From the UHGV virus genome UHGV-1364246: 39,893 nt of DNA; one strand, given 5' to 3'. Below are positions 9,681 through 26,139 of this stretch, in pieces. Numbering within the stretch: position 1 is the first letter of the stretch; the number at the start of each line of letters is the position of its first letter. The DNA comes from a virus. Below the pieces are notes generated by a model. The model was not told the DNA's origin and searched no databases. It saw only the letters and a list, made by a program, of their open reading frames with translations. Made by a program: the position numbers and the translations under genes.

Positions 9681-9727
9681 AGTCTAATCATAAAGGCCAC
9701 TCGCTGTGAATGACCTTGAGTCTAGAC
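9681..9727 (-). ncRNA. RNase III processing element (R4.7-like)
   Basis: Conserved ~45-nt element ATCATAAAGGCCAC-N10-ATGACCTTGAGTCTA (plus sense), shared with 17041-17089 and 26086-26139; resembles recalled T7 R-site motif GACTCAAGGTC...GTGGCCTTTATG. Confidence 0.6.
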
Positions 9728-9910
9728 CTAGAAGTCTGTACGCAAGAAGTGGTACATGAACTTACGGTTAGCCTTCTTCCATGCCTTAGAGTCGAACCTC
9801 TGTTCTCCTAGAATGTTTGACAGGAAGGTTGCTTCATCGCTCCACCATTTGTACATGAACCGATGGTATCGAGCTTTAAGTTTCTTTAACACTAGAATGG
9901 AACCCTCCAT
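9728..9910 (-). CDS. Small hypothetical protein (gp4.3/4.5 position)
   Basis: 60 aa ORF with ATG start directly after the primase-helicase gene; weak SD. Confidence 0.35.
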   Translation of the reverse strand: MEGSILVLKKLKARYHRFMYKWWSDEATFLSNILGEQRFDSKAWKKANRKFMYHFLRTDF

Positions 9911-9925
9911 TTATACTTCTCGTAA

Positions 9926-11626
9926 TCAGAAGTCTTGGTCTTCCCACGAGCCACTATCCTCTTCTCCGCTGCTGCCAGTGAAGCTAATCGGTTCAAGCCA
10001 CCCGGTCGTCTTGTTGTACTCAAGGTGTCCAGCCACTCCTGTATCACCTGTAAAGCGACACTTGAGTAAGCGAAGCTGAACAACGTTAGGAGTATCACCT
10101 TGCTGGTTACGTTCAAGTGCGATGATAGTATCAGACAGTTGGCGTAGAGCACCAGAACCACGTAGGTCAGTGATTGAAACAGGTCGTCCTTCTTCATGCG
10201 ATTTACCTTTCTCTGGGTTCTTCAGGTGGCATATGACCACGACAACAACACCCTTCGTCTTAGCAAACTTCTTGAGACGAGTCATGATGCGGTCAATGGT
10301 CTTACGCTCATCTGAGTTATCTTCCATGCCAGACACAACGATTGAGATGTGGTCCAGCAGTATTACGTCACAGTCGAGACCATCCACCATGTAGGACAAC
10401 TTAGCGAACAAGGTGTCTTCTTCCGACTCAGCGAATGAATCGTACAGGTGGAACTTATCGTCCCCGAACAGCTTGTCATACCATTCGTCGAACCGCCCAT
10501 CCTCTAAGATGGCTTGCTTCAGTTCCTTGCTCTGGCGTAGACGGACGTTATTGTCCAGACCAATAAGGTCCTGAACTGTTTCCTCTACAGCCTCTTCAAG
10601 CATAGCCATGCCAACACGCTTACCTCCTCTGCCCCACTCTAAGAGTAGCTGACGAACAAAGGTAGACTTACCCATGCCTGACCCTGAAGTCACCATGATA
10701 AGCTCACCAGCTCGCGCACCGAGTGTCATCGCGTTGAGTGTTGTGCATGACGAGAACATGAGACCTTCAGTCTCTGCCTTAAGCATTGCCTCTCGTGTGC
10801 GGTCCTTCAGACTTGCCGCTGATACCACTCCAGCCGGGACGAAAGGTTTAGCGTTCCAGATTGCATCGGTGATGGCCTTGAAGTCCTTGGCCTGAAGTGC
10901 AGCGTTGGCGTCTTTGTACCCATTGATGAACGCTACCTTGACCCTACCTGCTGGTAAGACTGGAGCTGCATCCTCAATGGCCTGACGTCCCGGTTCATCC
11001 ATGTCGAACATCAAGATTATCTCTTCGAACTGGTCGAGATACTCAAGGTTCGCAGCCATCGCTTTCTTCGCAGACTTGGAGCCTAACGGAAGCGAGACCA
11101 CAGGATACTTACCGTCCTGCACCTGAGCCACAGACAAAGCGTCTATCTCACCCTCGGTGATGACTATCTTCTTGCCACCGTTCCATAGCTGAGAGCCGAA
11201 CAACATGTCAGACTTGACGCTACCAATAGCCGTGAAGTTCTTCTCAGCGTCTCTGACTTTCTGCCCTACCTTGGTCCCGGACCTGTCGTAATAATCAGCG
11301 ACCTGAACCATCTTGCCGCCCATGTTACCCACCCAGTAGCTGTACTTCTTGCATATCTCCATGCTGAGACTACGGGCTGGTAGTGGGACATATCGTCCAG
11401 CGTTCTCACTGAACGTTAACAGATTGCTCACTTGCTTTCTACCTCCTGAGGGTGTGTATCCCTCGGTCAACTCCATGTCTCCTTTCTTCCATGCGACTGA
11501 AGGGTCACAGGCGAAGCAGTACATGTGTCCATCTGAGTAAACACCATTGGCATCAGAGGACCCACAGTCTGGACACTGGGTGTGATACAGAAAGACACTC
11601 TCGTCGTCTCGGTCATCGTATGACAT
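9926..11626 (-). CDS. Primase-helicase (gp4-like)
   Basis: 566 aa; N-terminal zinc ribbon CPDCGSSD...CFAC, TOPRIM region, Walker A GSGMGKST; same length as T7 gp4. Confidence 0.92.
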
Positions 11627-11676
11627 TGGTCACTCCTTAATCACAAATGCGAACAAAGGGACAGGACTCACGGTCC

Positions 11677-11699
11677 AATCCCTAAGGTGATAGTTTAGG
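11677..11699 (-). promoter_or_regulatory. Variant phage RNAP promoter (phi4-like), CCTTAGGG instead of CTATAGGG
   Basis: Minus-sense CTAAACTATCACCTTAGGGATT; overlaps the stop codon of the 71-aa gene. Confidence 0.55.
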
Positions 11700-23664: not shown

Positions 23665-25428
23665 TTAGTGGAACGTAACGTAGGACCCTAGTCCTAGCTC
23701 GTCGTCCGTATCGTGCGTTACCCGGACCCCATTGTCCCAGAACTCAGTGTGGATGGACTCGAATCCTTTCCGTGGGTTCTCCATCTGTTCCTCCAGCCAC
23801 TCCTCAGTGACTTCACGTTCGCCTTTGTTGGCATCCTTAGCCATAGACTCAACGAAGAACTGTACACCGATAGCCAGCGCATCAAGTCGGTCATCGTGTG
23901 CCAAGGCGCCACGTTCACGAGATATACGTGTCATCTGGTAGAAGAGAGAGTAGATAGGGTTACGAACACCATCCTTATCAGAGGCTGACTGGTAGTCTTG
24001 GACGATAGCAGCAGCGTTTACGATAAGTCGGTGAGACCCCATGATAGGCTCCAGAACGTCACAGATGCGTAGTTCTTTCTGACCCTTACTCTTCACTTCA
24101 GTTACAGCCGCAGGATGAATACGGGCAGCTACAGGCTTGAATAGCTCAAGGTACATACCATCACCGAAGTTACCCTCAATGACGTATTCGTTAACCTTCC
24201 ACTTACGACCAATCTTAGCCAAGGCTTCCAGCGTAGAGTCTTCATAGCCACCACGCATACCACCAACTTCCATAGCGAAGATGTAGCCGTTGAGCTGGTA
24301 CAGTACCGCATAGCCAGTTTCATCCTTACCACGACCACTAGGGTCAATGACCAGAATCTTCTGGGTGTACGAACTGAAGGCAGAACCTACAGTCTGATAC
24401 GTGTGGTATGAGTCACCCATGAGTCCAACGTTAGGAACGTCCTCACGCTTGTTCTGAGGGTTAGGCAACCATTGGTAGACCATTGGGCTGGACGCTGGGT
24501 CCAAGTCTGCTACGATAAGGTCACGGAGCTTCAGAGGGTACTTCTCGGCATCACTCAGGTTCGGGTTAAGCATGAACTGTAGAGCGAAACCAGCTTTACC
24601 GTACGACAACTCGCGTTCCTTCAGGTCCGTATCATCGAAGCGTACTTCATCAGTCGGACGCCAGTAGAAGGACTCAGGGTCCTCTTCCAGCTCTGCCTGA
24701 AGCATAGGAGCCAGACGGTCGCCGTAAGACTGCCAGTCCTTCCTGTCGCGTGGATAACGAGCGGGCCAGATAGTAGTGGTGTACCCACGACCTTCCAGCT
24801 CACGATACAGGGTCATCTCGTTCTGAGGAGTACCCAGATAGATGATTGTACCTCCCGGCTTCAGGATAGCGTCGAATTCTTTCACAAGCTCTGACAGACG
24901 GTCACGCGCAGCCTGAGTCGCTGAGTTGTTCGGAACTTCCACGTCATCGGCAATCAGGATGTCAGCACGACTACCAGTCAACTGACCAGTGATACCAACG
25001 GACTTAACCGAAGGTGAGTGGTCCGGCTTGGCTGGCCCAACATCAAAGCTGATAACCGCATCTCGTTGTCCCTGCTTAGGTTTGAGTTCCTGAAGCTGAG
25101 GCATGAGGTCGATGATTCGCTTGATGAAGATGGAGTTCGCATCGGCTCGTTCCTTTGAGGCCGACACAATCATGAACTTCAAGTCTGGGTTGTTCCATAA
25201 CTTCCAGACAACGAAGGCACACGTAATGAAGGACTTCCCTATACCACGGAACGCCTGTAGAATGAAGCGCCTGTTGTCCCCAGCCGATAGTTTCTTCGCC
25301 ATGTCAATCTGACAGCGAGTCGGGACCGGGAGTGACAGAGCTTTCCACAGGACGAACAGGAAGAACACGAAGTCTGACTTCATACGTGCAGTCATTAGCG
25401 CCTGACGCGCCACTAAGTCTTTACTCAA
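23665..25428 (-). CDS. Terminase large subunit (gp19-like)
   Basis: 587 aa; [28 protein letters not shown]...[18 protein letters not shown] (Walker A) closely matches recalled T7 gp19; apparent TTG start with AAGGAGGT 8 nt upstream. Confidence 0.93.
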
Positions 25429-25430
25429 GG

Positions 25431-25595
25431 TTACACCTCCTTAGGTTCAAACCACTTAGATGGGAACATACCAATGTACCGTCCTCCCCTAATATGCACA
25501 TAGGAGTCAATGTCTTCAAGCGAGTCCACCCAGTAGACTGAACCCACCTCAAGAATCCCATTTGAGTCAGACTTTAAGCATTTAACTCTAATCAT
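25431..25595 (-). CDS. Hypothetical 54-aa protein between spanin and terminase (no T7 counterpart)
   Basis: Translated by hand: [54 protein letters not shown]; GAGGGAG upstream; its stop TAA lies inside the terminase SD. Confidence 0.5.
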
Positions 25596-26037
25596 TGCTC
25601 TCCCTCTCTTGCTGTAAGGATCTCACAGTGTCCTGAAGCGCCTTAATCCACTTGTCTCCTTTCAGTCCGATGGCGATAAGACGTTTAGCATCTCGTTCGT
25701 CAAGTTCGGCGTAACCATCAATGACGCATCGACCGTCACTTTGCGTGGTTCCACTCGTAGGTTTGACTCGGATGCGCAGCCGCTTATTGTCAGACTGAAG
25801 GTCAGCAATAATCCTGTCAGTGCTGCCTTCCAGCGAGGACATTTCGTCCTGAAACCGTTTGGACACCTTGTTGACTTCAGCTTGGACAGCAAGTCTTGTA
25901 TCCTCCGATGCCTTAAGATTCGAGGTGTATTCTGCATTGACCTTAGCCTCCCACTTATTGTTAGCGGTGTGATAGCCACCAGCAAACATCACTGCTGCAA
26001 GTAACCACGGAGCCGCTCTCTTTAAAAATTCGAGCAT
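25588..26037 (-). CDS. i-spanin (gp18.5 / Rz-like)
   Basis: 149 aa; N-terminal transmembrane segment AAPWLLAAVMFAGGY then coiled-coil-like region; syntenic; contains an embedded frame with a lipobox. Confidence 0.75.
   Translation of the reverse strand: MLEFLKRAAPWLLAAVMFAGGYHTANNKWEAKVNAEYTSNLKASEDTRLAVQAEVNKVSKRFQDEMSSLEGSTDRIIADLQSDNKRLRIRVKPTSGTTQSDGRCVIDGYAELDERDAKRLIAIGLKGDKWIKALQDTVRSLQQERESND
25662..25937 (-). CDS. o-spanin (gp18.7 / Rz1-like lipoprotein) embedded in the i-spanin gene; start uncertain
   Basis: +1 frame within the i-spanin gene encodes a basic n-region, hydrophobic AALTGLLLTFSLT and lipobox ISGC; first in-frame ATG is far upstream of the signal peptide. Confidence 0.45.
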   Translation of the reverse strand: MQNTPRILRHRRIQDLLSKLKSTRCPNGFRTKCPRWKAALTGLLLTFSLTISGCASESNLRVEPRKVTVDASLMVTPNLTNEMLNVLSPSD

Positions 26038-26085
26038 AGTCGCCCTCCCGGTTTATCAGATTTCACGTAGAGTATCCTCCACTAG

Positions 26086-26139
26086 TTAGTGTTAACCATA
26101 AAGGCCACTACATATAGTAATGACCTTGAGTCTAACACT
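26086..26139 (-). ncRNA. RNase III processing element (R18.5-like)
   Basis: Third copy of the CCATAAAGGCCAC...ATGACCTTGAGTCTA element, between genes 18 and 18.5. Confidence 0.6.

Follow-up and report, generated by a model that had tools for sequence, protein, structure and literature searches.

Intergenic hairpins of a Kayfunavirus genome resembling the RNase III sites of phage T7

What is the role of the short repeats located between genes in the viral genome UHGV-1364246? An earlier note on this genome, whose 39,893 nucleotides (nt) were scanned as a whole and are called the window below, had described three copies of an RNase III-like element at 9681-9727, 17041-17089 and 26086-26139. We recovered the three copies at these places, and the hairpins predicted for them have almost the same limits (9681-9728, 17040-17093 and 26088-26139, hereafter sites A, B and C). 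Their identification as RNase III-like elements is supported by their sequence, by the fold of the sense strand, by matches to a model trained exclusively on T7 sites, by covariation and by the flanking genes. The count of three was too low, since the genome contains five sites, including two divergent ones in the early region that had been missed (22092-22162, site D, and 21221-21286, site E). We consider it very likely that the three repeats and the two divergent early copies are signals for processing by the host RNase III and homologues of the T7 R sites. By homology with T7, we infer that they are cleaved, where the cut falls, and that it affects mRNA stability.

The long open reading frames (ORFs) of the window are all on the minus strand, as are its 11 phage promoters (AACTATCACTATAGG). 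The functional reading of the repeats is therefore the reverse complement of the plus strand, which had been quoted as the reading strand. In the sense orientation, copies A, B and C consist of UAGACUCAAGGUCAU, 9-11 variable nt and GUGGCCUU(U/C)AUG(A/G)UUA, the variable centre being different but self-complementary in every copy. The joined pattern AAGGCCAC-N(6-16)-ATGACCTT occurred exactly three times in the window and never in 100 dinucleotide-preserving shuffles. Both blocks were also over-represented when taken alone: the 5' block ATCATRAAGGCCAC had four matches with at most two mismatches (0.45 expected), and the 3' block ATGACCTTGAGTCTA was exact in all three copies. The spacer of ten nt proposed previously was roughly right, although its length is not fixed (9, 11 and 11 nt), and the proposed start ATCAT(A/G) holds for A and B but not for C, which has ACCAT, one mismatch in the 5' block.

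Folded as minus-strand RNA, A, B and C reached -20 to -23 kcal/mol, with z-scores of -3.1 to -4.3, and the corresponding plus-strand RNAs were far weaker. The structure prediction that had been proposed as a check thus gave a stable hairpin with an internal loop on the sense strand only. In each of the three, a lower stem of 7-9 base pairs (bp) is followed by an asymmetric internal loop and an upper stem of 10-12 bp, for a total of about two helical turns. RNAalifold recovered the same consensus fold from the five window copies, with compensatory changes at 10 of the 20 pairs. On the opposite strand, the conserved U:G wobbles would become C-A mismatches, indicating a structure of the sense RNA.

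The sites were compared with those of T7 by means of a covariance model. RNase III sites are not listed in the GenBank and RefSeq records of T7, and we relied on the cleavage coordinates that Dunn and Studier are said to have given in 1983. At these coordinates, 7 of 10 positions of the T7 sequence showed the same hairpin, with the consensus ACUCAAGGUC..GUGGCCUUUAU|GAU, the DNA form of which (ACTCAAGGTC..GTGGCCTTTAT|GAT) is that of the window copies. The model was trained on these seven T7 sites only and run on the whole window with filters off. Its best matches were site C (26088..26139, 53.2 bits, E 4e-10), site A (9681..9728, 47.4 bits, E 1e-8) and site B (17040..17093, 45.9 bits, E 2.3e-8), followed by site D (22092..22162, 35.4 bits, E 8e-6) and site E (21221..21286, 31.2 bits, E 8e-5). 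All five are on the minus strand, and the next best match had an E of 1.8. All three copies of the earlier note, which had suggested such a comparison, were thus detected from T7 sequences alone. When validated on the T3-like phage phiSG-JL2 (NC_010807), the model recovered 8 of the 10 annotated putative sites at matching coordinates with no extra match; the two missed ones, R3.8 and R13, are structurally different. It also detected T7 R6.5, which is absent from the training set.

At least 120 stretches were returned by a scan of viral contigs with a pattern in which part of the upper stem was fixed and the apex and the lower stem were left free; nearly all of the matches listed were on contigs of 38-46 kb. 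In an alignment of 129 model matches, 104 of them distinct, both-side changes were present at 18 of the 20 base pairs of the distinct homologues, and 90% of the cells were paired, versus 74% in shuffles and 28-49% in controls with slid partners. The covariation score was 0.452, as compared with 0.169 for the shuffles and at most 0.104 for the slid controls. In the lower stem, which was outside the search pattern, the sequence varied freely while pairing was kept.

The details of the fold can be compared with the biochemistry of T7 R1.1, in which the proximal box has 4 bp, the middle segment 2 bp (U:G, C:G) and the distal box a U:G that is strictly required, and in which at least 11 bp must separate the cut from the loop (PMC1540722). 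The proximal (AAGG/CCUU), middle (U:G, C:G) and distal (A:U, U:G) boxes of A, B and C (AAGGUCAU/GUGGCCUU) are identical to those of R1.1, and in sites D and E the boxes are variants, CAGG/CCUG (also that of T7 R1) and GAGG/CCUC, respectively. The helix of A, B and C agrees with the 11-bp minimum, as it consists of a C-U or C-C apposition plus 10, 12 and 11 bp, respectively. Site A is made of the lower stem GGUCUAG/UUAGACU, the internal loop ACUC opposite UAUGA, the upper stem AAGGUCAUUC/GAGUGGCCUU (10 bp) and the loop ACAGC; both its upper stem and its internal loop are identical to those of T7 R1.1. The upper stems of B and C are AAGGUCAUGACU/AGUCGUGGCCUU (12 bp) and AAGGUCAUUAC/GUAGUGGCCUU (11 bp), and their internal loops each differ from that of R1.1 by one substitution, to the C found in T7 R4.7 for site B and to the G found in R18.5 of both T7 and phiSG-JL2 (the UAU|GG variant) for site C.

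R1.1 RNA is cut once, into products of 47 and 13 nt (PMC4858673), sizes consistent with cleavage at UAU|GAU. In the window, homology places the predicted single cut between 9690 and 9689 in site A (UAU|GAU), between 17051 and 17050 in site B (CAU|GAU) and between 26098 and 26097 in site C (UAU|GGU), all on the minus strand. In the divergent hairpins, it would be located between 22114 and 22113 (-) for site D (ACAGGGUC...GGCCCUGACU|GAUAG) and between 21243 and 21242 (-) for site E (GAGAGGUCAUC...GGUGGCCUCAAA|GAUUACC). The internal loop of R1.1 confines cutting to one strand and a protective 3' hairpin is left (PMC1540722); from the likeness of their loops to that of R1.1, we infer a cut in the 3' strand only at A, B and C.

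The sites would thus operate within polycistronic minus-strand transcripts. RNase III would bind the proximal, middle and distal boxes of the upper stem, and the internal loop would direct a cut on the 3' strand only, between the U and the G of (U/C)AU|G(A/G)U. A protective 3' hairpin would be left to the upstream mRNA directly after its stop codon, and the start codon of the downstream mRNA would be preceded by a new 5' end, at a distance of 22 nt in A, 42 nt in B and 60 nt in C. More speculatively, the cut at site A might also unmask translation by freeing a Shine-Dalgarno sequence. In the outer helix of this site, CUUCU (9734-9730) is paired with a Shine-Dalgarno located downstream, GGAGG (9676-9672), with a probability of about 0.9 in the window and likewise in K1F.

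This pairing could also be taken to mean that the hairpins are bound but left uncut, either by RNase III acting as a binder or by a phage RNA-binding protein, and regulate translation of the gene that follows; binding without cleavage is indeed possible for some substrates of E. coli RNase III (PMC1540722). However, the variants that uncouple binding from cleavage have G-C at position 4 of the proximal box, whereas the sites described here have C-U or C-C, like the efficiently cleaved T7 sites R1.1 and R4.7. Moreover, at the position of site A the Shine-Dalgarno was paired less strongly in EcoDS1 and not at all in T7 and phiSG-JL2, and there is no candidate phage RNA-binding protein. We therefore judge regulation by binding without cleavage very improbable.

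The positions of the sites on the genome also favour processing signals of the T7 type. Alignment with EcoDS1 indicates that the window is a complete Kayfunavirus (K1F/EcoDS1-like) genome, reverse-complemented and circularly permuted, with the terminal repeat near 22785-22963. A 3-kb stretch that includes its RNA polymerase gene is 88-92% identical to Kayfunavirus phages such as EcoDS1 and ST31. The earlier note had assigned the three copies to the positions of R4.7, R1.1 and R18.5, and the flanking genes confirmed this, except that the gene after site A is not gene 4.7. Site A lies between a gp4.3-like ORF (9910..9728), with a stop codon directly adjoining the hairpin, and an ORF for an HNH endonuclease (9667..9263) followed by gene 5. 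The ORF after site A could not be retained as a gp4.7 homologue (BLASTP E 1.2), so that the label R4.7 applies by position only. In K1F (NC_007636) and EcoDS1 (EU734172), the orthologue of site A is directly before gene 5, as is the phiSG-JL2 site annotated 'R4.7', located between genes 4 and 5. The HNH homing endonuclease (9263-9667 (-), 134 amino acids, PHROG E 1e-29) is absent from both EcoDS1 and K1F. Its end overlaps the start of gene 5 at 9272, and it appears to take over the leader, the Shine-Dalgarno and the start position that serve gene 5 in these two phages.

Site B is preceded by a promoter core (AACTATCACTATAGG, 17090..17104 (-)) that lies directly upstream of it and overlaps the 5' arm of its lower stem at the transcription start, as R1.1 of phiSG-JL2 overlaps promoter 1.1; downstream are a gp1.1-like ORF (17008..16829) and gp1.2 (16825..16574). 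Site C separates the small terminase gp18 (26411..26148) from the Rz spanin gp18.5 (26037..25588), and R18.5 of phiSG-JL2 is likewise between genes 18 and 18.5. Another phiSG-JL2 site, R0.45, is a direct BLAST match of site C. Site D (R0.3 position) closely precedes the first early gene (22085..21561), and site E (R0.5 position) lies between small early ORFs. In T7, R4.7 and R18.5 are strong late sites (PMC5592923).

The same arrangement was recovered in the closest relatives. Near-identical hairpins are present at the same positions in K1F (5566-5631, 12849-12912 and 36441-36506) and EcoDS1 (6048-6113, 13041-13103 and 35936-36001), and carry no annotation in either record. The model gave six matches in K1F and five in EcoDS1; all five in EcoDS1 and five in K1F are at the map positions of the window sites, the sixth in K1F being an extra R0.3-like copy. 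One of the EcoDS1 hairpins, R0.5-like (1490-1554), is overlapped by an ORF annotated as 'unknown product' (1493-1636), which may be spurious.

Stable hairpins between genes could also be terminators, or pause sites for the host or the phage RNA polymerase, and one record labels the orthologue of site C in this way (MZ726794.1, phage ASO2B, 'terminator' at 36779-36878). However, none of the copies is followed by a U run (their 3' flank is UAUGAUUAG), and the combination of a G+C-rich hairpin and a U run that defines an intrinsic (rho-independent) terminator is thus lacking. A terminator scan of 9000-27000 flagged none of the sites, yet it detected the expected early terminator at 15117-15090. 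The latter, a terminator-like hairpin with a T-rich tail (15090-15117 (-)) after the ligase gene, matches the early terminator TE annotated in EcoDS1. Furthermore, essential genes are located directly downstream of the sites in the same transcription units, and the conserved internal loop and U:G pairs are foreign to terminators. The lack of a U run and of any flagged site led us to exclude termination, to which we give virtually no chance, and the ASO2B 'terminator' is probably a mislabelled RNase III hairpin.

As processing signals, the sites share with T7 R1.1, R4.7 and R18.5 (and with R0.3 and R0.5) the consensus ACUCAAGGUC..GUGGCCUU(U/C)AU|G, the boxes, the loop, the three-part fold, the sense strand and the map positions. 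They differ from the T7 sites in their apical loops and lower stems, through compensatory changes, and the middle and late copies of the window are more alike among themselves than the T7 sites are. The complement is also smaller: there are five sites in the window versus the ten annotated in phiSG-JL2, among them the promoter-embedded R3.8, R6.5 and R13. In the window, no equivalents of T7 R1, R1.3 and R6.5 were detected with the covariance model, which is blind to sites of the R3.8/R13 type. In contrast to T7, only a half-site is present ahead of gene 1. Finally, no homologue of gp0.7, the protein kinase by which RNase III is stimulated in T7, was detected in the window, EcoDS1 or K1F (tblastn E >0.8, versus 1e-78 for the positive control phiSG-JL2).

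Several points weigh against the identification of these hairpins as RNase III processing signals. Without the gp0.7 kinase in the genus, the efficiency of processing could differ from that of T7. A literature search returned no paper linking Kayfunavirus with RNase III and no cleavage data for the genus. Confirmation of the T7 coordinates is only indirect and comes from the sequence, from the sites annotated in phiSG-JL2 and from the product sizes of R1.1; the phiSG-JL2 sites are themselves annotated as 'putative'. The alignment behind the covariation had been fitted to the model and was made up of members found with a pattern in which part of the upper stem was fixed. Lastly, site B has a C-C instead of a C-U apposition beside the cut, although the same is true of T7 R4.7.

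The sites are canonical T7-type signals, a textbook feature of T7 found in five copies in a K1F-type relative, and as such they are ordinary. Their value lies in annotation and practical use, and the understanding of how these elements work is unchanged. In Kayfunavirus records the hairpins are unannotated (K1F, EcoDS1 and the others listed) or, in one case, called a terminator; once the five sites are marked, the expected mRNA map of the phage can be read off. The near-identical sites could serve as ready-made RNA-processing parts, T7 R1.1 and R0.5 being already used in synthetic biology. The genus would also have retained canonical signals for RNase III while lacking the kinase by which T7 boosts this enzyme.

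It had also been suggested that the repeats promote recombination, and they might act mainly as DNA, as short homologies or cassette boundaries driving exchanges among T7-like phages. Homology with relatives breaks beside sites A, B, D and E, K1F gene 0.2 lies between two R0.3-like sites, and orphan half-sites follow two promoters. However, among 26 close relatives, only 5 of 61 breakpoint clusters were within 15 nt of a site, which is about the share of the sites among the roughly 55 gene boundaries and hence reveals no enrichment beyond a general gene-boundary effect, in a survey that is a weak test because the loci were sampled around the sites. The longest exact identity between any two copies is only 16 bp, and as the copies are direct repeats, intragenomic exchange would be expected to delete essential genes. 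In addition, compensatory changes and conserved G:U pairs reflect selection on RNA, not on DNA. The suggestion thus received no specific support, and we regard a role mainly as DNA as very unlikely.

Such a role could also come on top of RNA processing. Units combining a promoter and an R site are common in the T7 group, and comparable promoter-stem-loop cassettes have been described in T4-type phages. The 5' edge of the site B promoter (17105-17110 (-)) was among the commonest homology breakpoints, with homology both ending and starting there (11 related loci), and the block formed by this promoter, site B and gene 1.1 (17107-16826) behaves as a conserved island between variable cassettes. 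In K1F, the two R0.3-like hairpins flanking gene 0.2 are at 707-777 and 1030-1094, as if the gene had been inserted with its own site. The orphan half-sites of genes 1 and 10, the K1F gene 0.2 duplicates and the hotspot at the site B promoter edge are possible scars of cassette shuffling. That promoter and RNase III-site units double as portable boundaries by which small genes are shuffled nevertheless seems unlikely to us.

The first of the half-sites had already been noticed after the promoter ahead of gene 1, and was found as described: GACTCAAGGT is at 20145-20154 (-), right after the promoter (20154-20168), with no GTGGCCTT partner. It could not be retained as a complete site, given the missing 3' partner, the weak fold (z -1.8) and the lack of a model match at E up to 10. 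The gene 1 leader that follows it (20085-20150 (-)) contains two short direct repeats, AAGUGAAAGAC and GACUUUAAGU, each present twice. A second copy of the orphan GACUCAAGGU is at 1102-1111 (-), in the loop of the phi10 leader hairpin (1090-1140 (-), (UA)GGGAGACC...GGUUUCCC(UA), z -4.8), which resembles the 5' stem-loop of T7 phi10 and T7 R3.8. Both orphans are probably remnants of promoter and RNase III-site units.

The exact complement of the 5' arm (ACCUUGAGUC; sense strand ACCTTGAGTC) occurs at 1438-1447, 3458-3467 and 15925-15934, inside genes 9, 8 and 1.3, in reading frames that differ among the three. About 0.03 occurrences of this 10-mer would be expected. Its positions are conserved in EcoDS1 and K1F, and it is absent from T7 and phiSG-JL2; for the copy in the ligase gene, conservation is a powerless test, as close relatives are 98-99% identical there. 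The conserved 10-mer might hint at long-range RNA pairing.

Rfam gave no match in the whole window at gathering thresholds and nothing relevant around site B at E up to 10; as Rfam has no family for RNase III sites, this is uninformative on membership in the class. Another hairpin, with palindromic arms of 8 bp (AAGGTCAG...CTGACCTT) and a 21-nt loop, is located at 23129-23165, between gene 19.5 and the terminal repeat.

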